A stretch of 64,000 bases of DNA from NCBI GenBank assembly GCA_963664405.1, contig OY761158.1, positions 3,744,001-3,808,000 on the forward strand. The letters are read 5' to 3'. The stretch is from Thermoanaerobaculia bacterium. Lineage in GTDB: Bacteria; Acidobacteriota; Thermoanaerobaculia; Multivoradales; Multivoraceae. Of the stretch, positions 2 through 24,171 are shown in pieces. The notes beneath the pieces were generated by a model that had not been told where the DNA came from, did no database searches, and saw nothing but the letters and a program-made list of their open reading frames with translations. The position numbers and the translations under genes were made by a program. Numbering within the stretch: the stretch's first letter is position 1; each line of letters begins with the position of its first letter.

Positions 2-1411
2 GAGACCGGCGAGCTACGCTTCTCCGACATTACGGACCAGGCGGGAGAGCTGTCGCAGGGCTACGGCATGGCGGTGGCGGTCGGTGACTACGACGGCGAC
101 GGCTGGCGGGATCTCTACGTCACCAACGTCGGTGCAAACCATCTGCTGCGCAACCAAGCGGGGCGCGGCTTCGAGGATGTGACCGCTGCGGCGGGTGTCG
201 AGGACGACAGTTGGAGCGTGCCGGCGGCCTTTGTCGACTTCGACCGCGACGGTGACGAAGATCTCTTCATCGGCAACTATCTAGCGCGAGATCCAGAAAA
301 GATGTCGGGCTGCGTCGACTACACGGGCGCTCCGGACTACTGCGGTCCTGAGAACTTTCATGCCCTCCCAGATCGTCTGTTCAGAAACCGCGGTGATGGC
401 AGCTTCGACGACGTGAGCGCTGAGGCCGGGTTGAAGGCGGCCTTCGGACCGGCCCTCGGTGTCGTCGCCGCCGATCTCGATGGCGACGGTTGGCTCGACC
501 TCTACGTCGCCAACGATGGCAAGCCCAACCAGTACTGGCACAATCAGGGCGACGGCAGCTTTCGTGACGAATCGCTACTGGCGGGGTGCGCGCTCAACGG
601 GGCGGGCCAAGAAGAAGCGTCGATGGGAGTCGACGCCGGCGACTTCGACGGCGATGGCGATCTGGATCTCTTCATGACCCACCTGATCAGCGAGAGCAAC
701 ACTCTCTACCGCAACGACGGTACCGGCGGCTTCGACGACATCACGGCCCGAAGCAATCTCTCCACTCCGAGTCGACTTCACACCTCCTTCGGAACCGGAT
801 GGCTGGATTACGATCTCGACGGTTGGCTCGACCTACTCGTCGTCAACGGTGCGGTGAAGAAGATCGAGTCACTGGCGAGGGCGGGAGATCCCTTTCCTTT
901 TCACGAGCGGAACCAGCTCTTTCGCAATACCGGAGACGGTCGCTTCGAGGAGATGAGTGATAGGGGGGGCGCCGCCTTCTCGTTGTCCGAGGTCAGTCGG
1001 GGAGCTGCCTTTGGCGATGTCGATAACGACGGGGACACCGACGTGCTCCTGGTCAACAACAACGGTCCCGCTCGACTCCTGATCAACCAGGTCTCGGCCT
1101 CCAGTTGGCTCGGCGTTCACCTGCTCATCGGCGAGCCGCCGCGAGACGCCCGGGGCGCCAGGGCGGTCGTCGGCGTCGCCGCCGACAGGCGGCTGTTGAG
1201 GAGGGTCAGGGTCGAGGGGAGCTTCGGCTCGGCCAGCGATCCTCGCCTTCTCTTCGGGCTGGGGTCGATGCAGGATTTCCCAGACCTGGAAGTGCACTGG
1301 CCTGACGGCTCCGCCGAGCTGTTTCGAGGTCTGGAGCCGGGTCGATACCATCTCGTGCAGAGAGGCAGTGGGTCTACGGTCGACACCGTGCCCGCGGGAG
1401 AGGAGTCGTGA
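2..1411 (+). CDS. CRTAC1-family FG-GAP repeat / ASPIC-UnbV protein (5'-partial)
   Basis: Repeated DxDGDGxxDL motifs and a C-terminal ASPIC/UnbV-like segment (GSFGSASDPRLLFGLG..VHWPDG). The frame is open back to the window start (ETGELRFSDIT...). Confidence 0.9.
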   Translation, partial: ETGELRFSDITDQAGELSQGYGMAVAVGDYDGDGWRDLYVTNVGANHLLRNQAGRGFEDVTAAAGVEDDSWSVPAAFVDFDRDGDEDLFIGNYLARDPEKMSGCVDYTGAPDYCGPENFHALPDRLFRNRGDGSFDDVSAEAGLKAAFGPALGVVAADLDGDGWLDLYVANDGKPNQYWHNQGDGSFRDESLLAGCALNGAGQEEASMGVDAGDFDGDGDLDLFMTHLISESNTLYRNDGTGGFDDITARSNLSTPSRLHTSFGTGWLDYDLDGWLDLLVVNGAVKKIESLARAGDPFPFHERNQLFRNTGDGRFEEMSDRGGAAFSLSEVSRGAAFGDVDNDGDTDVLLVNNNGPARLLINQVSASSWLGVHLLIGEPPRDARGARAVVGVAADRRLLRRVRVEGSFGSASDPRLLFGLGSMQDFPDLEVHWPDGSAELFRGLEPGRYHLVQRGSGSTVDTVPAGEES

Positions 1412-3468
1412 CTCGTTTCCGAGCCGCCCTGTTGGTGATCGGGCTCAGCACCGCCTGCACCTCTCCCGAGGCGGAAAGGACGGTTCCCGCGGCCACGAGC
1501 GCCACTGGCGCTGCCGACATTTCGAACCAGCTGGTGCCCATCCCCTGGCCCGACCTCGCCAAGGCTGAGTCCCAGGTCAAGGAACAGATCGGACCTCTGC
1601 GGACTGCTCTGGAACAGCGTCAGGCGTCGTCCAGCCCCGATCCACGCGCCTTTGCCGAGGACCACGGGCGCGTCGGTGTCGTCTTTATCGCCTACGAGTT
1701 TCTGGAGGCGGCCGAAGCCTGCTTTCGCAATGCCGGGGCCCTGGCCGAGGAGGACCCTCGCTGGCCCTACCTCCTCGGCTACCTACTCAAGATGCAGGGC
1801 CAACTCGAAGAGGCGGCGCCGCTCTTGGAGCTGGCACTCGCGCTCGAGCCCGAGAACTGGGTCACGCGGGTTCGTCTGGGAGACACTTACTTCGAGCTCG
1901 GGCGCCACGAACTGGCTCGCGACCACTACGGAGCTGTGCTCGACTCGCGCCCCGAAGAGGCTGCTGTTCATGCCGGTTTAGGTCGCATGGCGGTGGCCGA
2001 AGGTGACGACTCCGCCGCTGTGGAGCATCTGTTGCGAGCGCTGGAGATCCAGCCTGGGGCGACCAGCTTGCACTATCCTCTCGGGCAGACCTATCGGCGT
2101 CTGGGGGAGCTGGAGCAGGCTGGGGCGCATCTCGCCAAGCGGGGGGACATCACAGTGAGGATCGAAGATCCTCTGCTCGATCCGATCGCCGTTCTCGGGC
2201 GGAGTGCCCAGTTCTACCTCGATCAGGCGGGCCGGGGCATGGAGAACGGGCGTTACGACATCGCCGCCGAGAATTTCCGCCAGGCCCTGGAGTACGATCC
2301 TGAGGCTTTCCGGGCCTACCGTGGGCTCGCTTTCAGCCTCGCCGAGCTGGGTGACCGCAGCGGTGCCATGGTGGAGCTCCGGCGCGGCTTGGAGCGGGGT
2401 CGCACCGGTGGCGACAGCCAGGATCGCTGGCAGCAAGCCGAGATTCATCGTCTGCTTGGCGAGCTGTTGGTTCTCGATGGCAACGACGGCGGGGCGATCG
2501 TGGAGTTCCGACGCGCCCTTGAGCTGCGCAGTGATCGCCTGGACGCCGTTCTTCTCCTAGCCAACGCTCTGGCTCGTAGCGGCGAGCTCGACGAGGCCGT
2601 TTCTCTTTACGATCGACTCCTCGCAGCCCAGCCCGCCAATGCTGCGACGAGATTGCGGCGGGCGACGGCCCTGATCAATCTCGGGCGAGAGGCGGAGGCG
2701 CTGGTCGACTTCGAAGCGGCGGTCGCCGCCGAGCCCTCGAACGCCGAGATTCGGCTGCGTTTTGCCGAGGCGCTCGACTACCTCGGTCGCCCCGCCGAAG
2801 CTCGAGAGCAGCGGGCGCTCGCGAGGTCGGAGGGTGACGAGCTGGCGGGCGTGCTCGCCGAGGCGGACGCTCTGGTCGCGCGGGGAGGCTTCGAAGAAGC
2901 GCACTCATTGCTGCAAGAGGCGCTGGGCCGGAGTCCGGAGAGCCTCGATCTGCGCCTCCGCGTAGCTCGTCTGCAGGGTCATCTCGGGAACTACGCCGGC
3001 GCGGCTGAGATCTTCGGCAGGCTGCGCCACGAGCGGCCGCGCCTTGCGGAGCCTTGGCGGGGGGAGATCTCCGCTCTGATCCTTCTCGAGCGTTACGGTG
3101 AGGCCCGTGAGCGCTTCCGCGAGGCTCTGGAGAACTTTCCCCGAGACGCCCAACTGGCTCACGGGCTGGCCCGTCTGTTGGCGATCGCGCCCGGGGCCGG
3201 AGAGCGAAACGCCGCCCTCGCTGTCGACCTTAGTCAGCGGGTCCTGGAGGCCCGCAACGAACCCGCGACCCAGGAAACCTTGGCGATGGCCCTCGCCGAG
3301 TCGGGTAAACAGCGGGAAGCCGCGGCCCTGCAACGCCAAGTCCTGACCGCGGTCGGTGGTGGCGACGATCTCCAGCGCAGCAGGCTAGAAGCCTACGAGC
3401 GCGGCGAGGCCTGGCGGTTGAGCTCGCCGGACGAGATTCTGAGCTTGCTTCTTCCGGGGGGAGCATGA
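1408..3468 (+). CDS. Tetratricopeptide repeat protein, putative lipoprotein
   Basis: Many TPR helices; N-terminal signal with lipobox-like LSTAC; GTGA overlap with the upstream stop. Confidence 0.85.
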   Translation: MTRFRAALLVIGLSTACTSPEAERTVPAATSATGAADISNQLVPIPWPDLAKAESQVKEQIGPLRTALEQRQASSSPDPRAFAEDHGRVGVVFIAYEFLEAAEACFRNAGALAEEDPRWPYLLGYLLKMQGQLEEAAPLLELALALEPENWVTRVRLGDTYFELGRHELARDHYGAVLDSRPEEAAVHAGLGRMAVAEGDDSAAVEHLLRALEIQPGATSLHYPLGQTYRRLGELEQAGAHLAKRGDITVRIEDPLLDPIAVLGRSAQFYLDQAGRGMENGRYDIAAENFRQALEYDPEAFRAYRGLAFSLAELGDRSGAMVELRRGLERGRTGGDSQDRWQQAEIHRLLGELLVLDGNDGGAIVEFRRALELRSDRLDAVLLLANALARSGELDEAVSLYDRLLAAQPANAATRLRRATALINLGREAEALVDFEAAVAAEPSNAEIRLRFAEALDYLGRPAEAREQRALARSEGDELAGVLAEADALVARGGFEEAHSLLQEALGRSPESLDLRLRVARLQGHLGNYAGAAEIFGRLRHERPRLAEPWRGEISALILLERYGEARERFREALENFPRDAQLAHGLARLLAIAPGAGERNAALAVDLSQRVLEARNEPATQETLAMALAESGKQREAAALQRQVLTAVGGGDDLQRSRLEAYERGEAWRLSSPDEILSLLLPGGA

Positions 3469-5180
3469 GAAAGGGAGCAGCGGCTGTCGTCGCTACTCTC
3501 GTCGGCGCGGGGGCCTCGGCAGAGGCCCCGCCGATCTTCGTCGACGTTGCCAAGGAAGCTGGCATCGACTTCGTCTACTTCAACGGTATGAGCGGCGCTT
3601 ACTACATGCCGGAGATGGTCGGAGGTGGTGGAGCCCTCTTCGACTACGACAACGACGGCGACCTCGACGTCTACCTGGTCCAGGGGAGCTTGCTAGTCAA
3701 GGATTCTTCGTCAAAGGGCTCGACGGCCGCGGAGACCGGAGAGCTCGGCGACCGTCTGTTTCGCAATGAGCTCATCAGCGAGACCGGCAGCGGGGTTCTT
3801 CGTTTCACCGACGTGAGTGAGGAGGCGGGCCTCGGCGCCGGCGGCTATGGCCTCGGCATCGCCACGGCGGATTTCGACAACGACGGCTGGCGGGATGTGT
3901 ACGTGACAGGCTTCGGCTCCAATCGCCTGTTGCGCAATCGCGGGAACGGATCGTTCGAGAACGTCACCGAGGCGAGTGGCACGAACGACTCGCGTTGGAG
4001 CGTGCCAGCTCTCTTTTTCGACTACGATCGCGACGGTTGGCTCGATCTCTTTGTCGGCAACTACGTGGACTACTCGCTGGAATCTTCCAAGACCTGCAGG
4101 AGCTTGTCGGGAGTGCCAGACTACTGCGGCCCGCTCTCCTATGAGGCCGCGTCGGACCGACTGTTGCGAAACCGGGGCGACGGCACCTTCGAAGAGGTCA
4201 CTGCGAAGGCCGGTCTGCTTGCCGCCCGCGGTGGGGCCCTGGGCGCCGTCGCCGGAGACTTTGATTCCGACGGCTGGCCGGATCTGTACGTTGCCAATGA
4301 CGGTCTGCCGAACCAGATGTGGATCAATCAGGGCGACGGGAAGTTTCTCGACGAGGCGCTGCTCGCCGGCACCTCGGTCAACATGATGGGCCGTCCCGAG
4401 GCGAGCATGGGTGTCGCCCTCGGCGACTTCGACGACGATGGTGACGAGGACCTGTTCCTCACCCATCTTCGCGCCGAGACCAATACTCTCTACCGCAACG
4501 GCGGCGATGGATTCTTCGAAGATGCGACCACCGCAACCGGGCTGGGCGCGGCGAGTTGGACCTTCACCGCCTTCGGCACCGCCTTTGTGGACTACGACAA
4601 TGACGGGCTTCTCGACCTCTTCGTCGCCAACGGAGCGGTTCATGTGCCGGATGGCCCGGTCGAAGAAGGCCGCGTCTTTCCGCTTGATGAGCGCAACCAA
4701 CTGTTCCGCAACCTCGGCGGCGGCAGATTCGCCGACGTCAGCGCTTCAGTAGGTCCGGTGATGTCGCTGTCGGAGGTGAGTCGAGCGGTTGTCCCGGGTG
4801 ATATCGACAACGATGGGGATGCTGATCTCCTGGTGATCAACAACTCCGGCCCGACGCGACTGCTCTTGAACCAGATCGGTTCGCAGAAGCAGTGGATCGG
4901 CGTCCGCGCTGTCGAAGGCGATCCGCCCAGGGACAGCCTCGGCGCCCGCGTCGGCGTCCGCCTGGCGAGTGGCGCGATGCGCTGGCGTTGGATTCGAACC
5001 GCCGGCAGCTACGCCGCCTCGGCGGACCCGAGAGCGCTGATCGGGCTGGGAGACGTCGAACGGGTGGACGAGGTCGTGGTGGTGTGGCCGGATGGCACCG
5101 GGGAACGGTGGCCGGCGACTTTGGGCCGTTACACCACCCTTCTTCGGCGAACCGGCGAAGCCTGGCGGGAGAGCCGGTGA
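3465..5180 (+). CDS. CRTAC1-family FG-GAP repeat / ASPIC-UnbV protein
   Basis: Signal peptide, FDYDNDGDLD repeats, DYCGP motif, ASPIC C-terminus; ATGA overlap. Confidence 0.9.
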   Translation: MRKGAAAVVATLVGAGASAEAPPIFVDVAKEAGIDFVYFNGMSGAYYMPEMVGGGGALFDYDNDGDLDVYLVQGSLLVKDSSSKGSTAAETGELGDRLFRNELISETGSGVLRFTDVSEEAGLGAGGYGLGIATADFDNDGWRDVYVTGFGSNRLLRNRGNGSFENVTEASGTNDSRWSVPALFFDYDRDGWLDLFVGNYVDYSLESSKTCRSLSGVPDYCGPLSYEAASDRLLRNRGDGTFEEVTAKAGLLAARGGALGAVAGDFDSDGWPDLYVANDGLPNQMWINQGDGKFLDEALLAGTSVNMMGRPEASMGVALGDFDDDGDEDLFLTHLRAETNTLYRNGGDGFFEDATTATGLGAASWTFTAFGTAFVDYDNDGLLDLFVANGAVHVPDGPVEEGRVFPLDERNQLFRNLGGGRFADVSASVGPVMSLSEVSRAVVPGDIDNDGDADLLVINNSGPTRLLLNQIGSQKQWIGVRAVEGDPPRDSLGARVGVRLASGAMRWRWIRTAGSYAASADPRALIGLGDVERVDEVVVVWPDGTGERWPATLGRYTTLLRRTGEAWRESR

Positions 5181-6723: not shown

Positions 6724-8025
6724 CTACTCGAGATACTTCAACATCTCGCGCGCGGCGTCGGCGTTGGGATCGTCCGGTGCCAGGGCGAGGAACTTCTCGA
6801 GGTGCTCCTTGGCCTTGGCGCTCTCCTCAGAGTTGGAGTAGGCGAGGCCGAGGTGGTAGTGGGCGCTGGCATTTTCCGGCACCAGCTCGATCACTCTCTC
6901 GAGGTCGATGGCGGCGCCCGCGATGTCGCCGGCATTGAATTTCGTCACGCCGGACTCGGAAAAGGTCTTAGCCAGGGCCGCCGGGTCGACCTCGGCCAGC
7001 GCGTCGAAGGCCGCCTGGCTCTTCACCTGGTCGCCAAGACCCCTGTAGGCTTCGTAGCGCACACGGAGGGCTCGTGCGTTGCCGGGGTTTGCAGCCAGAA
7101 AACTCTCCGCTTGCGGCGCCGCTTCCGACCACTTCTCCTGCCTGGCGTAGACGAGCATCAGTGCCTCGACCGCCGGCATGAAGCCGGGCTCGACCTCCAG
7201 AGCTTCGAGGAAACGTTTCTCGCCAGAGGCCAGGTCACCCTCTCTAGTGGCGTCTGCGCCTTCGTTGTAGAGCAGGGTCGCTGTGTCGGCGTCCTGACCG
7301 AGGTCAGCGAGGCGTTTCAGGGTCTTCTCCGCTTCATTGGCGTTGCCGAGACCGCTGTGGGCCTCGTAGAGGAGGCGAAGGCCGCGGGGGCTGTCCGGGG
7401 CGAGCTTGGCGAAGGTCTGCGCCGAGCTCAGTGCATTTTCGAAGTCACCGCTGTCGAGGTAAGCCGTGGCAAGTGCGGAATGAACCGCCACCATCTTCGG
7501 GTCCAAGCTCCCGGCTTCGAGGAATTTGGCTTTGGCGGTGGCGAAATCCTTCGCCTCAAGAGCGTTGACTCCCTCGTTGAAGGCGGTCTCGGCCGGGGTG
7601 AAGACCGTTCTGCCCGGGTCTCCGCCGCTGTCTTCTTCGCTGGCAGTGGTGGTACTGGTGGCGCCGCTTGAACCGCTGCTTCGAGTCACCGCTGTCAGAG
7701 CTATAGTGCTGAAGCTCGTTTCTCCCAGCTTCGGCTTGACATCCGCCGTCACCGGCGAGTAGCCATCGGCTTCGACGGCAAACTGGTAGACAAAGACCGC
7801 GCTGGGGACCATGATCATGGCCTTCCCCCTCTTGTTCGTGGTCTTCTCGAGTTTGAAGTTACCTCTCTTGGCGGTGGTGACAGTCACCACTGCGCCATCG
7901 ACGCCGTTGCCATCGGCGTCGGTGACGGTGAGGGAGATGCGCGCCGGCTGTGCCGACAACGGCGATGAGAAGACTCCGACTAGAACGAGGGCGAATGGGA
8001 CGGCAAGGCGTGCCTGCCACTTCAT
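6724..8025 (-). CDS. Secreted TPR protein with N-terminal carboxypeptidase-regulatory-like domain
   Basis: Signal peptide, VTDADGNGVDGAVVTV beta-sandwich motif, Ser/Thr linker, TPRs. Confidence 0.85.
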   Translation of the reverse strand: MKWQARLAVPFALVLVGVFSSPLSAQPARISLTVTDADGNGVDGAVVTVTTAKRGNFKLEKTTNKRGKAMIMVPSAVFVYQFAVEADGYSPVTADVKPKLGETSFSTIALTAVTRSSGSSGATSTTTASEEDSGGDPGRTVFTPAETAFNEGVNALEAKDFATAKAKFLEAGSLDPKMVAVHSALATAYLDSGDFENALSSAQTFAKLAPDSPRGLRLLYEAHSGLGNANEAEKTLKRLADLGQDADTATLLYNEGADATREGDLASGEKRFLEALEVEPGFMPAVEALMLVYARQEKWSEAAPQAESFLAANPGNARALRVRYEAYRGLGDQVKSQAAFDALAEVDPAALAKTFSESGVTKFNAGDIAGAAIDLERVIELVPENASAHYHLGLAYSNSEESAKAKEHLEKFLALAPDDPNADAAREMLKYLE

Positions 8026-17714: not shown

Positions 17715-18776
17715 GTGATGGAGGATCGAGCAGTCAACTCGAGCGCGATGCCGCGTTTGAGCCGCTCCCTGTTGACCCCAGGACCTCTGGCGCCGCTGTC
17801 TCATTTCGGCGGCACTCTGCTTCGCCATGTGGTCGCTACCGGCCTGCGTTACTCCTTTTACCAGTTGGGGTTAGCGATTCCCGAAGCGGCGCCGGTGCGC
17901 TTTGTGCGACTGCGACTCTTTCTCGACGCCGAGCCACTCCATGAGCTCGTTCATGGCCAGCCCGGCGGGGAAGAAGTGCTCGGCGCTGTACTCTCGCCCG
18001 GAGGCGTCGGCGAGGAGGAGGACGGTGCCGGAAGGCTGAAGGCCGCGTTGGGCTTTCATCGTCTACGTCAACGACTTCTGGGCGCCAGGGGCCGATCTCG
18101 ACAACGACGCCTGCCTGGCCCCGGATCTGGACGGGCTCCGGGCCCGGAGTCCCGCGCGGAGCTGTGGGGTCTCGTTCGCGAAGAGCTCGATCTGCGTCTG
18201 CCCTACCTCTGCGACATCATCCTTGCGGAAGTGATGGAGAGCCAGCGTCGTCGTCGGCTGCGCCGTCGCGGTCGGGAGCTCCCACGCGTCCTCGGACCGC
18301 AGGCCCGGCGCTTGATCCAGGGCGGCACGGCCAAGCTATCGAGCCTCGGGCCCCCCGACCCTCTTGCTCCGTCATGGGCTGAAAATGGGCTAGACCCCGG
18401 CGAAATGAAGAGCGGTCTGGCGGAAGGTCAGCAGACCGTCGCCGGCGGTCGACGAGGGGCCTTCCGGGAGGAGTACCGGCAGCTCCTCTCCGAGCTGCGG
18501 CCGATTCTTCTCGACCTCGGCCGACTCTGCGTCGAGGATGGGCTCCTCGATCTGGCCGACGGTGTTTTCTTCATCCCCTTCGACCTTGGCGATGCGCTGA
18601 CCTCGACCACAGCCGCGGCCTGGCTCGGCCCTGCGATCGCCGCCAATCGTCGCGAGCGAGAGGCTCTACTTCCAGAGCCTGAGCATCGCGACGAGCTTCG
18701 TGTCTCCGCCGCCCTTGCGGATCTCGACGACTTGTCCTCCCAGTGGCAGATCGCACCTCTTCTGCCGCTCAACTAG
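17715..18776 (+). CDS. Hypothetical protein, weak resemblance to the central helical region of PEP-utilising/rifampin phosphotransferase-like enzymes
   Basis: LLDLGRLCVEDGLLDLADGVFFI motif; no ATP-grasp or phospho-His domain visible; start uncertain. Confidence 0.6.
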   Translation: MMEDRAVNSSAMPRLSRSLLTPGPLAPLSHFGGTLLRHVVATGLRYSFYQLGLAIPEAAPVRFVRLRLFLDAEPLHELVHGQPGGEEVLGAVLSPGGVGEEEDGAGRLKAALGFHRLRQRLLGARGRSRQRRLPGPGSGRAPGPESRAELWGLVREELDLRLPYLCDIILAEVMESQRRRRLRRRGRELPRVLGPQARRLIQGGTAKLSSLGPPDPLAPSWAENGLDPGEMKSGLAEGQQTVAGGRRGAFREEYRQLLSELRPILLDLGRLCVEDGLLDLADGVFFIPFDLGDALTSTTAAAWLGPAIAANRREREALLPEPEHRDELRVSAALADLDDLSSQWQIAPLLPLN

Positions 18777-18939
18777 TACATGCGGCCATAAGTACGGGTA
18801 CGTTTCGAGCGACGAAGCGCCTCGCCAGCAAGGCGCGTGACTGAGGCGTACCTGGCAGTACGCCGCAGGGAGCGCAACGCTGCTGGAGAGGATGCAGCGT
18901 CGCTCCAAACGTGTCCGTATTTATGGCCGCGTGTACTAG
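18773..18939. repeat. About 167-bp palindromic element (MITE/RPE-like) bounded by CTAG
   Basis: About 58-bp imperfect terminal IRs (CTAGTACATGCGGCCATAAGTACGG... / ...CCGTATTTATGGCCGCGTGTACTAG) and a central hairpin GGCGTAC-ctggca-GTACGCC. Confidence 0.85.
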
Positions 18940-19326
18940 TCCTTAAACAAGCGCTTCGCGCTTGTAGTGTTGATGGCTGCGAGAAAGCGCATCCCGTTGG
19001 CTGCGAGCGCAGTTTCCGGGATGGAGTGAGCTGAGGGCTTCGCGACCGCGGGAAAGCTAGGCCTTCTTCAGGAAGGGCGGCATCATCCCGCCGGAACGGC
19101 GGTCCGGGTGCGTGGTCCCGGCGGCGTGTTTGCGGTCGGAAGAGATGCGTGAGTCGGTGTAGGGCTTTGCAGTGCGGGCTCTGCTCTGATAGAGCAGGCC
19201 GACCAGAGACGGCGAGAGCCCGGGAAAGCGAAGTAGAAAACGCCCCGGGCTCTGCCCCAAACCGCAGCATTAGCTGCGCTTGCAGTATGGCAGAGAGTCG
19301 GGGTCGTCGTCGAATGGGAGGCGACG

Positions 19327-19722
19327 ATGCGACCGGACTACCGACTCTTCGACTGTGCTCGATGCCGTCGGCGTATCTCGCTGTGCTCGCACTGTGACCG
19401 TGGCCAGCGTTACTGCCGGGCTTGTGCTCTGGTGGCTCGTCGGGAATCGACTCGGGCGGCCGGCCATCGGTACCAGCGAAGCCTCCGAGGTCGGCATTGT
19501 CATGCCGCCCGTCAGGCCCGCTACCGTCGGCGCCAGCGCGAGCGGGCAGAGAAAGTGACGCATCAGGGTACCCCAGGCGGTACTTCGGGGAGGACACTGT
19601 GTCGGATCGAGACTCCGAGGCGCGAAGTGCGCTACGACCCGAGGAATCCGCGATGCATGCAGTGTGGAGAGGCCTGCCGAGAGTTTGTGCGAACGAGCTT
19701 TCGTCGTTGCCGACGGAGATAG
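19327..19722 (+). CDS. IS21-borne Cys/Arg-rich putative zinc-finger protein
   Basis: CARC...CSHCDRGQRYCRAC; C-terminal CMQC..C; GGAGG RBS; stop 4 nt before istA. Confidence 0.75.
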   Translation: MRPDYRLFDCARCRRRISLCSHCDRGQRYCRACALVARRESTRAAGHRYQRSLRGRHCHAARQARYRRRQRERAEKVTHQGTPGGTSGRTLCRIETPRREVRYDPRNPRCMQCGEACREFVRTSFRRCRRR

Positions 19723-19726
19723 GGGC

Positions 19727-21235
19727 GTGATCGACGCACAGCTGCGCGGGGAGATCCGTCGTCTGTTCCTGGTCGAGAAGTGGAAAGTCGGCACGATCGC
19801 TCGACAGCTACAGCTGCACCCCTCAACCGTGCGCCGGGCGCTGGAGAAGTCCGGCGTGCTACCCCAGCAGCGACGAGGGAGGATGATCGATCCTTACCTG
19901 CCGTTCATCGAGCAGGTGCTCGGGACCTACCCACGACTGCCGGCGAGCCGTCTCTACACCATGGTGGTGGAGCGCGGCTATCCAGGAGGCCCGGATCAGT
20001 TTCGCCACCTGGTGGCCTCGATGCGACCGAAGCCCCAGCGCGAGGCGTTTCTCTCGCTGCGCATGCTGCCAGGAGAGCAGGCGCAGGTCGACTGGGGCCA
20101 CTTCGGTCGGCTCCGCGTCGGCCGGGCACATCGTCGGCTCTATGCCTTCGTCTTCGTGCTGTCGTTCTCGCGCACGGTCTTCGTGCACTTCACCCTCGAC
20201 ACTCGTCTCGAAACCTTCTTGCACGCTCACCAGCTGGCCTTCCACTACGTCGACGGCGTCGTCAGGACCGTTCTGTACGACAACCTGCGAACCGCGGTGA
20301 TCGAGCGGCAGGGAACCGCGGTGCGCTTCCATCCCGTGCTGCTCGATTTCGCCAGCCACTACGGCTTCCTTCCCACCGTCGCCGCGGTGGCTCGGGGAAA
20401 TGAGAAAGGCCGCGTCGAGCGCGCAATCCGCTTCCTGCGAAGCTCGTTCTTCGGCGCCCGAACGGTGAGCGATTTGGATCGTCTGAATCGGCAGGTCCTG
20501 GAATGGTGCCAGAGGTCGCAGCGCAGACCCTGGCCGCAGGACCGACAGCGAACCGTGAAAAGCGCCCTGGCCCAGGAACGACCTCGACTGCTTGAGCTTC
20601 CCGGAGACGACTTCGAAACCGACCTGCGACTGGAGATCAAGGTCAGAAAGACGCCGATCGTGCGCTTCGACCTCAACGACTACTCGGTGCCGCACAGTCA
20701 TGTGCAGAGGACCGTCACGCTCCTCGCCAGCGAGCATCGGGTGCGGATCCTCGATGGCCAGGAGCTCCTCGCCGAGCACCCTCGCTCGTACTCCCGGGGC
20801 GAGCAGATCCTCGATCCTCAACACCTCGAGGAGCTCCTCGCTCACAAACGCAGGGCCCGACGACACCGGGGCTTCCATCGGCTGTTTTCCGCTGTGCCTC
20901 GATGCGAAGAGCTGATGCAGCAGCTCGCCGAGCGAGGCGAGAACCTCGGAACGCAGACCGCCGGCCTGCTCCGACTCCTGCGCCAGTACGGCCCCCAGCG
21001 ACTCGACAAAGCCGTGCGCGAAGCGCTCCTGAACCACGCACCGCGATTCCAGTCCGTCCGGCTCCTACTCGAACGGCACCAGCGCGGCCTCGGTCAGCCC
21101 CCGGCTTTACCGGTGCCGCTCAGCCAGGAGCTCCAACAGCGAGATCTCTCCGTGAGACCGCACAACCTCGAGGACTACGACCAACTTGGAGGCAACGACG
21201 ATGGCCCGACCCAGGAAGAGTCCAACGATCCCTGA
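19727..21235 (+). CDS. istA: IS21 transposase IstA
   Basis: HTH, PGEQAQVDWG, YDNLRTAV, NEKGRVER DDE motifs; GTG start. Confidence 0.95.
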   Translation: MIDAQLRGEIRRLFLVEKWKVGTIARQLQLHPSTVRRALEKSGVLPQQRRGRMIDPYLPFIEQVLGTYPRLPASRLYTMVVERGYPGGPDQFRHLVASMRPKPQREAFLSLRMLPGEQAQVDWGHFGRLRVGRAHRRLYAFVFVLSFSRTVFVHFTLDTRLETFLHAHQLAFHYVDGVVRTVLYDNLRTAVIERQGTAVRFHPVLLDFASHYGFLPTVAAVARGNEKGRVERAIRFLRSSFFGARTVSDLDRLNRQVLEWCQRSQRRPWPQDRQRTVKSALAQERPRLLELPGDDFETDLRLEIKVRKTPIVRFDLNDYSVPHSHVQRTVTLLASEHRVRILDGQELLAEHPRSYSRGEQILDPQHLEELLAHKRRARRHRGFHRLFSAVPRCEELMQQLAERGENLGTQTAGLLRLLRQYGPQRLDKAVREALLNHAPRFQSVRLLLERHQRGLGQPPALPVPLSQELQQRDLSVRPHNLEDYDQLGGNDDGPTQEESNDP

Positions 21236-21995
21236 CGAACCACTACGAGAGCTCGCCCGATCCCTCGGCTTCTACGCCCTCGTCGACGACTGGGGCACCT
21301 ACCGAGAACAGCCCTGGCTCGAACAGCTGCTGCGCAAAGAAGAGGCCGAGCGCAAACGGCGCAGCCTCGAACGGCGCATCCGCACCAGCCGCGTCGGGCT
21401 CTTCAAGAGCATCGCCGACTTCGACTTCTCCTGGCCCCAGCGCATCGACCGCGAGCAGATCCAGGATCTGCTCACCCTCCAATTCCTCGACGACATCACC
21501 AACGTCATCCTCCTCGGACCCAACGGTGTCGGCAAGACCATGATTGCCAAGAACCTCCTCTACCAGGCGCTGCAACGAGGGGCCACCGCCAGCTTCGTCA
21601 CCGCCTCCGACATGCTCAACGATCTCGCCGTCCAGGAAACCCCCTCGGCGCTCCAGAGAAGGCTCTCCAAATACACCCGACCCTCGCTTTTGGCAATCGA
21701 TGAGCTCGGCTATCTCTCCTACGACCACCGCCACGCGGATCTCCTCTTCGAGGTCGTCTCCAGGAGATACGGCAACAAGCCCATTCTTCTCACCACCAAC
21801 AAGCCCTTCGCCGAATGGGCCGAGGTCTTTCCCAACGCCTCCTGCGTCGTCACTCTCGTCGATCGACTCACCCACCACGCCGAGATCGTCAAGATCGAGG
21901 CTAACTCCTATCGCCGCAAGGAGGCCAAGGAGGCTGCTGAAAAAAAGGCCAAGGACCGCGCCAAAAGGCGGAGCGCAGCACGACGACGCTCATGA
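21201..21995 (+). CDS. istB: IS21 helper ATPase IstB
   Basis: FDFSWP, GPNGVGKT, IDELGYL, VDRLTHH, SYRRKE. Confidence 0.95.
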   Translation: MARPRKSPTIPDEPLRELARSLGFYALVDDWGTYREQPWLEQLLRKEEAERKRRSLERRIRTSRVGLFKSIADFDFSWPQRIDREQIQDLLTLQFLDDITNVILLGPNGVGKTMIAKNLLYQALQRGATASFVTASDMLNDLAVQETPSALQRRLSKYTRPSLLAIDELGYLSYDHRHADLLFEVVSRRYGNKPILLTTNKPFAEWAEVFPNASCVVTLVDRLTHHAEIVKIEANSYRRKEAKEAAEKKAKDRAKRRSAARRRS

Positions 21996-22348
21996 CCCGA
22001 AGCCACTATCGGCGCCAGCTCCTCCGCCTCTATCGACTCCTTCCCGACACCCCGCACCGCTTCCACCACGGCGACCGCGTCATCGTCGACCAGCTCTTCG
22101 ACCAAGACCTGCCTCTCACCGTCCTCCAGGCCGCCCTCCTCCTCGGCTCCGCCCGACGCGCATGCCGAGATCCGCGCCTACCAAAGCTCCAGCCCATCCG
22201 ATCCCTCGCCTACTTTCTCCCCATCCTCCGAGAACTCCCCACGACGCCACCCCCCGAGGGGTACCTCGACTATCTGCGCCACACCCTGAGTCACGCCTCG
22301 CGGGGACAAAAAACCGACTCGCAGCCAACTAAGTGCGCTTTCTCGTAG
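21992..22348 (+). CDS. IS21-borne hypothetical protein
   Basis: ATGA-coupled to istB; stop lies inside the right IR; YRLLPDTP...AALLLGSARR...IRSLAYFLP. Confidence 0.75.
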   Translation: MTRSHYRRQLLRLYRLLPDTPHRFHHGDRVIVDQLFDQDLPLTVLQAALLLGSARRACRDPRLPKLQPIRSLAYFLPILRELPTTPPPEGYLDYLRHTLSHASRGQKTDSQPTKCAFS

Positions 22349-22544
22349 CCGGTAACATGTAGCATCGGTTCGTCGCATGTAAGGGGCCATAAGGTCGTCT
22401 CGGGTGGGAAGAATTGGCGCAGAAACGCTGAGTCGGTGCGGTCGGCAGGGTCTTGTGTGGGGAGAGGGTCGGAATCGAGGCTTTCGGAGACACAGGTCGA
22501 CCGAGGCGGCCTTGGAGGTTTTCGCTGTGGGTCGGGGCTAAGCT

Positions 22545-24029
22545 TCATGAGACGGCGTGGTGCGCTTCGAGCAGCCAAGGGACGGTGTCTCTGAAGCCGA
22601 GGAGGCGAAAGATCATTCTTCGTCCGGACCTGAGGATTTGTGCGGGCACGAGGATGATGTCGTGGTAGAAGGTGCGGAAGTCGCAGCGGGCGATATAGGG
22701 GCGAAGCTTCTTGGGAACCGAGAGAGCCAGCCAGGCTTTCAGGTTCCAGGCCAGACAGCCGATCACCAAGTAGGCCCAGTTGCCAAGGAAGCTCTTGGTC
22801 GGCATCCTCATGGCTTGGATCTGGCTCTTAAGCTGCGCGATCAGGTTCTCCTGGTCGCAGCGCTGGTTGCTTTCGGCAATGATCGCAGCTGCATTGTGAC
22901 TCGTCTTCGGTAGGTTCGTAAGATAGAAGAAGTAGCGGATCTGCGGCTCCAGAAGGTGCTGTCCCTGGGTGACCTTGATCGTTTTTCGCAGGATCACCAG
23001 GCGATAGTTCTGGCGGCACTTCCTCGGCCGATATTCGATCTCGGCGACGTCCTCTTCTTCGAGCTCGAGGTTCAGATACCCCTTGGCTGAGATCACCAGC
23101 TGGCGCTGGTTCTGCGGTCGGGCGCGAAGGCCGGCAGGCACCCGATCCGGCCGCTTCAAAGGCTTGAAATCCCCCTCTTCCAAGCTGTTTGCCAGGTTTT
23201 TGGCCTTCGCGTGGGCCATCATCCCGAACACGAACCGATACCCCTTCTGGTCCCAGCCATCCAGGGAGGCGCTCGACGTGAAGTCGGTGTCTCCGCGAAA
23301 CAGAACCGAGTTGAAACCGCGCGCCAGAGCGGCCTGCGCACAGCGCTCCAGCGCCGCCGCCGAGCCCTCGTGAGAAGGACGAGAGGCGGAGCGATTCTCC
23401 ACCCACAACACCTCCGAGGAGTTCGCCAGCGTGACCAGCAACGGACCGTAACCCCATTTCCCGTTGTACGCCAGGTCGGCACCTTCTCGGCAATCTCCGC
23501 CCACCTCCGCGATCGTCCCGTCAACATCGATCGTCGCTTCGCCCTTGCCCCGCTTCCACTTCCAAGCCCTTTTGCCGATCTCCAGGTTCGCTTCCAACAA
23601 ACCTACAATCTGCTTTTCGTCGAATCGGCGAAGAAAGTCCCCGGCGGTCGTTGGACCCGGAATCCTGCGCGCACCCACTGCGTCCAAATACGCCAGGTCG
23701 CGGCGACGTCGCTCCAGGTCCTCAAGCGTGCAACCACCCGTAACCAAGTTGTAGATCATGTTCAAAATGTGATCCGACTCGTGGTACGGAAAGTGACGCT
23801 TCAACACCTCCACACGCCGATCCAACGTCTTGGCGATACCCAGGTGCTTCACCAGCTGGCGCACCAGACCCAGACCACCACACACAATCGCCTTGCTCCT
23901 CGTCGATATCTGGTAATACACCGATTCCTCCGACAGCATCGGGACATCCGTCTCCGGATACCAGGTCGGATCCAAACGAGCCTTGATCGCCGCTTGACCT
24001 TCTCTCTGCACAACCGTAATCTGTTTCAC
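22545..24029 (-). CDS. IS1380-family transposase
   Basis: YHESDHIL, IDVDGT, FRGDTDF, QRCDQENLIAQLK, NWAY..I.CLAWNL. Confidence 0.92.
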   Translation of the reverse strand: MKQITVVQREGQAAIKARLDPTWYPETDVPMLSEESVYYQISTRSKAIVCGGLGLVRQLVKHLGIAKTLDRRVEVLKRHFPYHESDHILNMIYNLVTGGCTLEDLERRRRDLAYLDAVGARRIPGPTTAGDFLRRFDEKQIVGLLEANLEIGKRAWKWKRGKGEATIDVDGTIAEVGGDCREGADLAYNGKWGYGPLLVTLANSSEVLWVENRSASRPSHEGSAAALERCAQAALARGFNSVLFRGDTDFTSSASLDGWDQKGYRFVFGMMAHAKAKNLANSLEEGDFKPLKRPDRVPAGLRARPQNQRQLVISAKGYLNLELEEEDVAEIEYRPRKCRQNYRLVILRKTIKVTQGQHLLEPQIRYFFYLTNLPKTSHNAAAIIAESNQRCDQENLIAQLKSQIQAMRMPTKSFLGNWAYLVIGCLAWNLKAWLALSVPKKLRPYIARCDFRTFYHDIILVPAQILRSGRRMIFRLLGFRDTVPWLLEAHHAVS

Positions 24030-24171
24030 CTGAAAAGCCTCTCTTTCGTCCGGTGTTTTTTGGGTCTGTCAACCTGAAACTACCTGAAAGAACGGGGCTT
24101 TTCTCCTTTTCTGGCTATCGCAACCACATAGGAAGCGCTTGTTCAAGGGCCGCGTGTACTAGGAACCCCGA

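Follow-up and report, generated by a model that had tools for sequence, protein, structure and literature searches.

Two Conserved Genes Flank istA and istB in a Widespread Branch of the IS21 Family of Insertion Sequences

A four-gene IS21 element in a Thermoanaerobaculia genome

The subject of this analysis is an insertion sequence (IS) of the IS21 family located in a 64,000-nucleotide stretch of DNA (here, the window) from a Thermoanaerobaculia bacterium of the phylum Acidobacteriota (GenBank assembly GCA_963664405.1, contig OY761158.1, positions 3,744,001 to 3,808,000), whose genome (G000) consists of one contig of 6.78 Mb. The element occupies positions 18968-22357 of the window (3,390 bp) and contains four tightly packed genes, all co-oriented on the plus strand: orf1 (19327-19722; 131 amino acids [aa]), istA (19727-21235; a DDE transposase of 502 aa with a GTG start), istB (21201-21995; an AAA+ helper ATPase of 264 aa), and orf4 (21992-22348; 118 aa). 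They are preceded by a non-coding, structured leader (19008-19326, plus strand) that was delimited by alignment and RNA folding and holds no conserved open reading frame (ORF). The two small genes were defined by their ORFs, alignments, and AlphaFold models, and istA and istB were defined by NCBIfam and Pfam models and by alignment with IS5376. A first-pass annotation made from the sequence alone had described clean inverted repeats and a 5-bp target site duplication enclosing a leader and four ORFs, and each of these features is present where it had been placed; it had gone on to propose that the two extra proteins are integral targeting or regulatory factors of an undescribed IS21 subgroup rather than cargo.

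The termini are 40-nt inverted repeats complementary to each other at 32 of 40 positions, the left one (18968-19007, plus strand) starting with TGT and the right one (22318-22357, minus strand) ending in ACA. Within the left repeat, TGGCTGCGAG occurs twice at a spacing of 24 nt, each arm having two copies of a 10-nt motif, and this pair appears to resemble the L1/L2 IstA sites of IS21. The duplicated target TGTAG was read in the sequence at 18963-18967 on the left and at 22358-22362 on the right. The insertion point is 30 nt in from the end of another IS, whose DDE_Tnp_1_4 transposase gene (22545-24029, minus strand) was detected with Pfam; this bears out the earlier remark that the element had landed in the end of another IS. 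A second copy of this flanking IS (C1:838073-836253) represents the empty site: it has TGTAG only once and thereby proves insertion with a 5-bp duplication. Genome G000 has 21 full-length copies of the element with 99.94-100% identity, in addition to fragments; 18 of these copies are bordered by exact 5-bp duplications, one by a 6-bp duplication, and two by none. Target duplications in the IS21 family are usually 4-8 bp. The insertion sequence is complete and was active recently.

Two further repeats adjoin it in the window. The host IS, ~1.8 kb in length, is split into 18933-18967 and 22358-24148, its intact copy lying at C1:836253-838073. At 18772-18940, there is a 169-bp repeat resembling a miniature inverted-repeat transposable element, with 43-nt terminal inverted repeats that are 88% complementary and ~10 copies in the genome at 90-100% identity.

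IstA and IstB are typical of IS21

IstA scores 245 bits against the NCBIfam model NF033546 (cut-off, 160), matches the Pfam domains rve and Mu-transpos_C_2, and aligns with residues 18-299 of IS5376 IstA. It thereby fits the pattern of IS21 transposases, which combine an N-terminal helix-turn-helix (HTH), a DDE (rve) core, and a Mu-type β-barrel. IstB, whose gene starts 35 nt before istA ends, matches Pfam IstB_IS21 (PF01695) with an E value of 1.6e-62 and NCBIfam NF038214 with 210.6 bits (cut-off, 200), and it aligns with residues 40-253 of the 254 of IS5376 IstB, i.e., over the full length. The istA gene of the first-pass annotation was likewise borne out; the start listed for it, GTG 19664, falls inside orf1, and, as inferred from alignment with relatives, the likely start is GTG 19727, 4 nt past the orf1 stop. 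Both proteins are thus of the canonical kind, and transposition presumably proceeds by the established route, with 5-bp duplications.

Like the classical elements IS21 and IS5376, the element of the window has two proteins that pass the IS21 models, terminal repeats with two subsites each, TG...CA termini, and a short target duplication. Unlike them, it has four genes instead of two, a length of 3,390 bp, and a structured leader of ~300-360 nt before the first gene, and its IstA is ~100 aa longer than that of IS5376 at the C terminus. It therefore departs from the textbook two-gene layout by having four conserved genes, while the transposition machinery itself conforms. PMC11208146 describes IS21 as a two-protein system encoding two essential proteins, and a search of PMC12486865 turned up no mention of additional genes. 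More generally, extra IS21 genes are undescribed in the literature that was searched; the curation of ISfinder and TnPedia lay outside that search, so prior curation notes are possible. Neither Pfam nor NCBIfam has a model for the two small proteins, and neither a name in public annotation nor a paper turned up; the notion that this is an undescribed IS21 subgroup is to this extent supported.

orf1 and orf4 are conserved and occupy fixed places beside istA and istB

A genome collection yielded 344 stretches with a relative of orf1 and 218 with a relative of orf4, and the best 80 of each were examined. Position downstream of orf1 was counted in the 75 of 80 loci with at least 600 nt downstream, and position upstream of orf4 was counted in the 79 of 80 loci with at least 600 nt upstream. 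An istA match begins directly downstream of orf1 on the same strand in 70 of the 75 loci, with a seventy-first (L049) recovered by tblastn; the remaining loci are L077, L084, L086, and L087, and in L077 and L087, other transposases are nested where istA would be expected. The corresponding figure for orf4 is 76 of 79 loci in which an istB match ends directly upstream. Where at least 2.8 kb of upstream sequence is available, an orf1 profile hit is also present in 59 of 66 orf4 loci. In the window itself, the ATG of orf4 overlaps the TGA of istB (ctcATGAcc), and its stop lies inside the right terminal repeat, an arrangement already noticed at the first pass.

Purifying selection on the small genes is comparable to that on the transposition genes: the median pairwise dN/dS is 0.34 for orf1 (1,543 pairs), 0.21 for orf4 (919 pairs), 0.25 for istA (2,194 pairs), and 0.28 for istB (1,950 pairs), as calculated by the Nei-Gojobori method on pairs with dS of 0.05-1.5, saturated pairs being dropped and pairs not being independent of each other. 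The reading of orf1 and orf4 as spurious ORFs is ruled out by their conservation, by the invariant cysteines of orf1 (see below), and by these ratios.

Multicopy relatives define the element independently of the window. They share segments of 3.3-3.5 kb that start with TGT and have short flanking duplications, the orf4 stop lying ~10-60 nt from the right end. Five such sets enclose orf1 between their ends (L137/138/139, L156/160, L165/167, L044-048, and L031-036), and four of the five also enclose orf4, the exception being L031-036, which has an unrelated 72-aa trailing ORF instead. Both small genes are kept even where IstA is only 45% identical. In G000, another four-gene IS21, diverged from the first, occurs in eight copies (e.g., L175, C1:6000107-6003360), with IstA 50% and IstB 60% identical to those of the window and matches to the orf1 and orf4 profiles at ~1e-35 and ~1e-19, respectively. 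IS21 copies at ~26% IstA identity are also present in this genome, and the profiles detected no orf1 or orf4 in their vicinity. The branch as a whole comprises hundreds of loci in Acidobacteriota, Pseudomonadota, Planctomycetota, Myxococcota, and other phyla.

Together, these results strongly indicate that selection maintains orf1 and orf4 and that, as the first-pass annotation had supposed, both belong to an IS21 subgroup as integral genes rather than cargo: they lie inside the repeats of all 21 copies, are fixed beside istA and istB, and have dN/dS ratios similar to those of the two transposition genes. In public annotation, orf1 is usually overlooked, and the gene following istB is called hypothetical. 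In the RefSeq plasmids NC_016108.1 (L176) and NZ_AP023183.1 (L177), the orf1 relative is truncated or replaced by an opposite-strand call, and for most other plasmid matches, nothing is annotated under orf1.

The proteins encoded by orf1 and orf4

The Cys- and Arg-rich 131-aa ORF recognized before istA at the first pass proved to be a conserved gene. Its product has 12 Cys and 37 Arg and a pI of 11.5. In an alignment of 22 sequences, eight cysteines are invariant (C10, C13, C20, C23, C30, C33, C110, and C113), as is the signature CSHCDRGQRYC...RYQ...GR..HA.RQ...KVTHQG. The AlphaFold model (pLDDT 80) consists of an N-terminal two-hairpin zinc ribbon, an Arg-rich helical hairpin (residues 31-75), a disordered linker, and a C-terminal CxxC. 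Among 308 candidates, 236 relatives were obtained at an E value of ≤0.01, mostly 41-60% identical. No matches were found in Pfam (E ≤ 0.1), NCBIfam, PHROG, or PADLOC, and searching PDB sequences with profiles from alignments A1 and A2 gave nothing credible. Five longer relatives are all devoid of Pfam domains, with no IstA fusion among them. An orphan orf1-like gene (L174 3867-4319; G000:C1:1147866-1148318; 150 aa; profile E value, 1e-23) has no istA nearby and adjoins an opposite-strand Ser/Thr protein kinase gene.

The orf4 product is modeled by AlphaFold as five helices (pLDDT 87; pTM 0.78). A word-indexed search yielded 30 relatives, and an exhaustive profile search yielded 1,585 representative clusters at E ≤ 0.001, 869 of them reaching E ≤ 1e-10. 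Again, there were no matches in Pfam (E ≤ 0.1), NCBIfam, PHROG, or PADLOC, and the ESM Atlas returned only unnamed clusters for both small proteins. The longer proteins bearing an orf4 domain (P0162, P0164, P0167, P0176, P0181, P0201, P0219, and P0298) have no significant Pfam domain. In a wide VIA fold search with residues 1-84, the top matches were nearly all AAA+ lid domains (Z scores, 5.0-7.1; root mean square deviation [RMSD], ~3 Å over 70-80 residues), with others to TnsC (7mbw; Z score, 5.3) and to DnaD domains (2i5u and 2zc2; Z scores, 5.5 and 5.2), the first of these DnaD matches having an RMSD of 2.5 Å over 66 aligned residues and, like the others, a score below the meaningful level. 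All of these VIA scores are under the tool's meaningful level for helical bundles, and we treat them as a lead only. There are also weak HTH-type matches on orf4-like domains (residues 137-176 of the L188 protein, described below) and weak RepB_primase_C matches in P0164 and one member of alignment A2.

A conserved, structured leader at the left end

Of the 47 relatives with a recognizable left end, 46 have orf1 at 277-360 nt from the left terminus. In the window, the leader contains an ATCATCC-CGCCG-GAA-CGGCG motif and long GC-rich hairpins (e.g., 19215-19253), a stem flanks the ribosome-binding site and start codon of orf1, and the RNA fold has a z score of -3.48, with none of 100 shuffled sequences folding as well. 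An alignment of 33 sequences (A4) displays conserved blocks and covarying stems, including the terminal repeat. Prominent among its features are a short GC hairpin with a GNA loop and ATCATC repeats alongside, with a compensatory change at one pair in five sequences, and a stem-loop of 10-12 bp that, judged by eye, stays paired while its sequence varies between subgroups; in the acidobacterial subgroup, an inverted repeat brackets the start codon of orf1. The leader recognized at the first pass as non-coding, for which an analysis of covariation had been recommended, thus turns out to be conserved and to have covarying stems. Rfam gave no match within 18700-22600 of the window. A sigma-70 promoter scan returned 0 sites, and terminator-like sites were no commoner than expected by chance. 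One metatranscriptome contained an exact 247-nt RNA contig inside istB, the other RNA contigs coming from diverged relatives.

orf1 and orf4 can be adjacent or fused, without istA and istB

The first-pass annotation had asked whether the two ORFs occur almost only beside istA and istB. For the best-matching loci that were examined, this is so (70 of 75 and 76 of 79 loci, as given above); it does not extend to a set of 16 orf1-orf4 loci without istA or to a transposon with an AAA_22 ATPase, to which we now turn.

Among the top 150 matches of the orf4 profile search, we found four orf1-orf4 fusion proteins of 246-283 aa (P0164, P0167, P0181, and P0201) that are 47-54% identical to each other. 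In P0164, residues 19-116 are orf1-like (44% identity; E value, 2e-14) and residues 142-249 are orf4-like (42% identity; E value, 1e-20); this fusion has no match in PHROGs or PADLOC. Scans with the fusions uncovered 16 loci (3 in genomes and 13 in metagenomes) in which orf1 adjoins orf4, in one open frame in 5 and in different frames in 11, representing either two genes or frameshifts. An istA gene is present in none of the 16. Instead, a tyrosine recombinase gene (Pfam Phage_integrase) starts within 60 nt past orf4 in 9 of the 13 loci that have at least 200 nt downstream, and a second recombinase gene is visible in 5 of these 9. L223 has only a short recombinase fragment, and L282, L283, and L309 have none. 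As a control, recombinase matches were obtained in 8 of 160 IS21-type loci, at 23-39% identity, and none of them was adjacent. This adjacency or fusion of orf1 and orf4 with tyrosine recombinases and no istA or istB is new. Because the two are neighbors or a single polypeptide in these elements, it is strongly indicated that orf1 and orf4 form one functional unit with two halves that can be fused.

The arrangement in L209, L237, L281, L287, and L288 is leader, orf1 and orf4 (fused or adjacent), and two tandem tyrosine recombinase genes, with no istA or istB. In L209 and L237, the TGT terminus, the ATCATC repeats, and the GNA-loop hairpin are kept as in the leaders of the IS21-type elements, and the pair with its leader looks like a unit that moves between recombinase types. 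L209 occurs only once in its genome and yielded no terminal repeat. In L304 (869-1138) and L306 (734-1003), a 90-aa istB remnant (49% identity) lies between orf1 and orf4, which suggests that the tyrosine recombinase arrangement may have arisen from a four-gene IS21 by loss of istA and istB.

A different setting for orf4 is a 3.5-kb transposon present in five copies in G000 (L173 ~1184-4737; G000:C1, ~6610183-6613736), whose terminal repeats begin with GAGAGTGATCA. Of its four genes, one encodes a small Cys-rich protein with an HTH_23 match and one an IS481-like rve transposase (474 aa); the transposase gene is followed by one for an AAA_22 ATPase, whose stop is overlapped by the start of an orf4 relative with 42% identity over 86 aa. 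The five orf4 profile matches in G000 without IstA or IstB nearby are copies of this type, and a scan with the AAA_22-linked orf4 relative returned only a near-identical genome.

The pair is also altered within IS21 itself. In a proteobacterial branch, orf1 is kept without orf4, and a ~72-aa ORF follows istB in 37 loci, with the consensus MK.WHQPSGL..GLPF...W.PEQALAV.ELLDDLRDR. In L031, the ATG of this ORF (7678-7896) overlaps the TGA of istB, and in the plasmids L176 and L177, the trailing gene, annotated as "hypothetical protein," has a 4-nt overlap with the istB stop. The 72-aa ORF was considered as a possible orf4 relative and rejected on a profile-profile probability of 0.15; it has no PHROG or PADLOC match. 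On the other side, four distant IS21 elements have orf4 and no orf1 profile match. Two of them, in G250 and G230, encode a 251-aa protein that has the orf4 domain as its C-terminal half. The one in G250 (L188 1399-2154, minus strand; 15 copies) is coupled to a distant IstB, and G230 encodes a similar protein; the N-terminal winged helix of the L188 protein, and not its orf4-like half, matches PHROG 186, "DnaD-like helicase loader" (E value, 1.4e-4).

A sample of 301 genomes from the phylum gives a broader view of the neighbors of orf4. The family is present in 14 of these genomes, from which 30 loci were returned. A co-oriented IstB gene lies within 400 nt upstream of orf4 in 22 of the 30, some of the IstB proteins being only 25-30% identical; an AAA_22 ATPase takes this place in 5 (all in G000 or its near-twin, G164); and 3 have neither ATPase. 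It is orf4, and not the zinc protein gene, that is most widely linked to an ATPase gene.

Possible functions of the orf1-orf4 pair

The hypothesis that the zinc-binding protein would be analogous to TniQ, and act in targeting, was examined with the 21 copies in G000. Their 19 duplicated sites and 40-nt flanks contain no common motif, and the element inserts without a sequence-specific target. A TniQ-like target selector, formed by the zinc protein alone or with orf4, has some precedents in its favor: IstB and TnsC are related ATPases, TniQ carries zinc fingers, orf4 is in the slot after the ATPase gene that tniQ occupies in the operons of Tn5053 and Tn7-like elements, and TniQ and TnsD are, likewise, small or zinc-containing accessories beside a transposase and an AAA+ ATPase. 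Because the 19 sites lack a consensus, such a selector is unsupported. Moreover, neither orf1 nor orf4 matches Pfam TniQ at E ≤ 0.1, nor do the 21 scanned members of the orf4 family at E ≤ 10; TniQ and TnsD chains are missing from the Foldseek and VIA match lists, an absence that does not by itself exclude the fold; and, unlike TniQ and TnsD, the same proteins accompany tyrosine recombinase elements that lack an IstB- or TnsC-type ATPase. We consider a selector role very improbable. Of the phrase "targeting or regulatory factors" used at the first pass, then, the targeting half and the TniQ analogy have found no support, the view of the proteins as integral conserved genes stands, and a regulatory role is a tentative proposal.

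The interpretation that we favor, with about as much doubt as confidence, is that the element is a four-gene IS21 with a two-part accessory factor that binds nucleic acid and is not a target selector. Binding of nucleic acid is plausible from the basic, Arg-rich composition of the orf1 product and the weak HTH-type matches on orf4-like domains. The zinc ribbon and Arg-rich hairpin of orf1 would be the binding part, and orf4 would be a helical partner or interaction domain. The factor might act on the conserved structured leader at the left end of its own element, where it would control how much recombinase is made, or when, or would help to assemble the end complex; it would make no choice of target and would work whatever the type of recombinase. 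This independence of the recombinase would explain the occurrence of the leader-orf1-orf4 cassette beside tyrosine recombinases. The specific proposal of action at the leader or left end, with control of expression or assembly, is a tentative one that we would sooner question than assert. A broader version, in which orf1, orf4, and the leader form a portable mobility accessory cassette serving unrelated recombination machineries (a DDE transposase with IstB, an IS481-like transposase with an AAA_22 ATPase, and tyrosine recombinase pairs), is possible and, in our estimation, doubtful; the cassette would then be a general controller or end recognition adaptor exchanged between classes of elements, and it may descend from a loader pair of the DnaD/DnaC type.

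Several observations weigh against the accessory factor interpretation. Foldseek searches of the PDB with the orf1 and orf4 models returned nothing at E ≤ 0.001, and the wide VIA search with orf1 reached a top Z score of 4.6 with helical hairpins only; the fold searches thus gave no significant match, and the pair is described as a DNA- or RNA-binding regulator on the strength of composition, gene position, and analogy. The RNA contigs that were found are uninformative on orf1, orf4, and the leader. The two genes can exist apart, as is evident from the four distant IS21 elements with orf4 and no orf1 match, and the proteobacterial branch does without orf4. The istB remnants in L304 and L306 also mean that the adjacency of orf1 and orf4 may have begun as a simple deletion of istA and istB and not as a functional coupling. 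Finally, the gene ahead of orf4 encodes an ATPase almost without exception, a pattern that better fits a role as a partner of that ATPase.

In such a role, orf4 would be a DnaD-like or lid-like adaptor that tunes the assembly of IstB on the target or its hand-over to IstA, with orf1 as the DNA-binding arm. The ATGA overlap with istB, the position of orf4 after istB in 76 of 79 loci, and its persistence beside IstB proteins of only 25-30% identity in the phylum sample (22 of 30 loci with IstB upstream) are all consistent with this, as is the overlap of an orf4 relative with the stop of the unrelated AAA_22 ATPase gene in another transposon. IstB is an ATPase of the DnaC family, and DnaD-like proteins are loader partners of ATPases of the DnaC/DnaI type; in this light, the fusion of the orf4 domain in G250 and G230 to a winged helix with the PHROG 186 match, the DnaD fold matches at Z scores of 5.2-5.5, and the AAA+ lid and TnsC matches of residues 1-84 are weak signals pointing the same way. 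Against these stand the orf1-orf4-tyrosine recombinase elements without an ATPase, fold scores that are all below the meaningful level for helical bundles, and the absence of Pfam DnaD or AAA-lid matches in the 21 orf4 family members scanned; the orf4 protein of the window, unlike DnaD-like loader partners, is also without a winged-helix domain, and its IstB is full length relative to IstB of IS5376, with nothing obviously missing. On balance, we deem an ATPase partner unlikely. Still less probable is that orf1 and orf4 are selfish or host-directed passengers, active in counterdefense, addiction, or capture of a host factor, that aid persistence and take no part in transposition. Members of the pair do occur with three unrelated machineries (IstAB, the IS481-like transposase with AAA_22, and tyrosine recombinases), the trailing slot is filled by the unrelated 72-aa gene in another branch, as is typical of exchangeable cargo, and no known function could be assigned from the Pfam, NCBIfam, and ESM Atlas searches. 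Yet neither gene has a match in PADLOC or PHROG; the translational coupling into the transposase operon and the split of the pair to either side of istAB would be unusual for cargo; and both genes are retained down to 45% IstA identity.

Implications

IS21 serves as a structural model for transposition under ATPase control. In a large, widespread branch of the family, two more conserved proteins are encoded, neither of which belongs to a known family. If the two-part accessory factor does regulate or assist transposition, it would constitute an unstudied layer of control in a well-studied machine, and it would be a rare case of one accessory factor common to unrelated recombinases.

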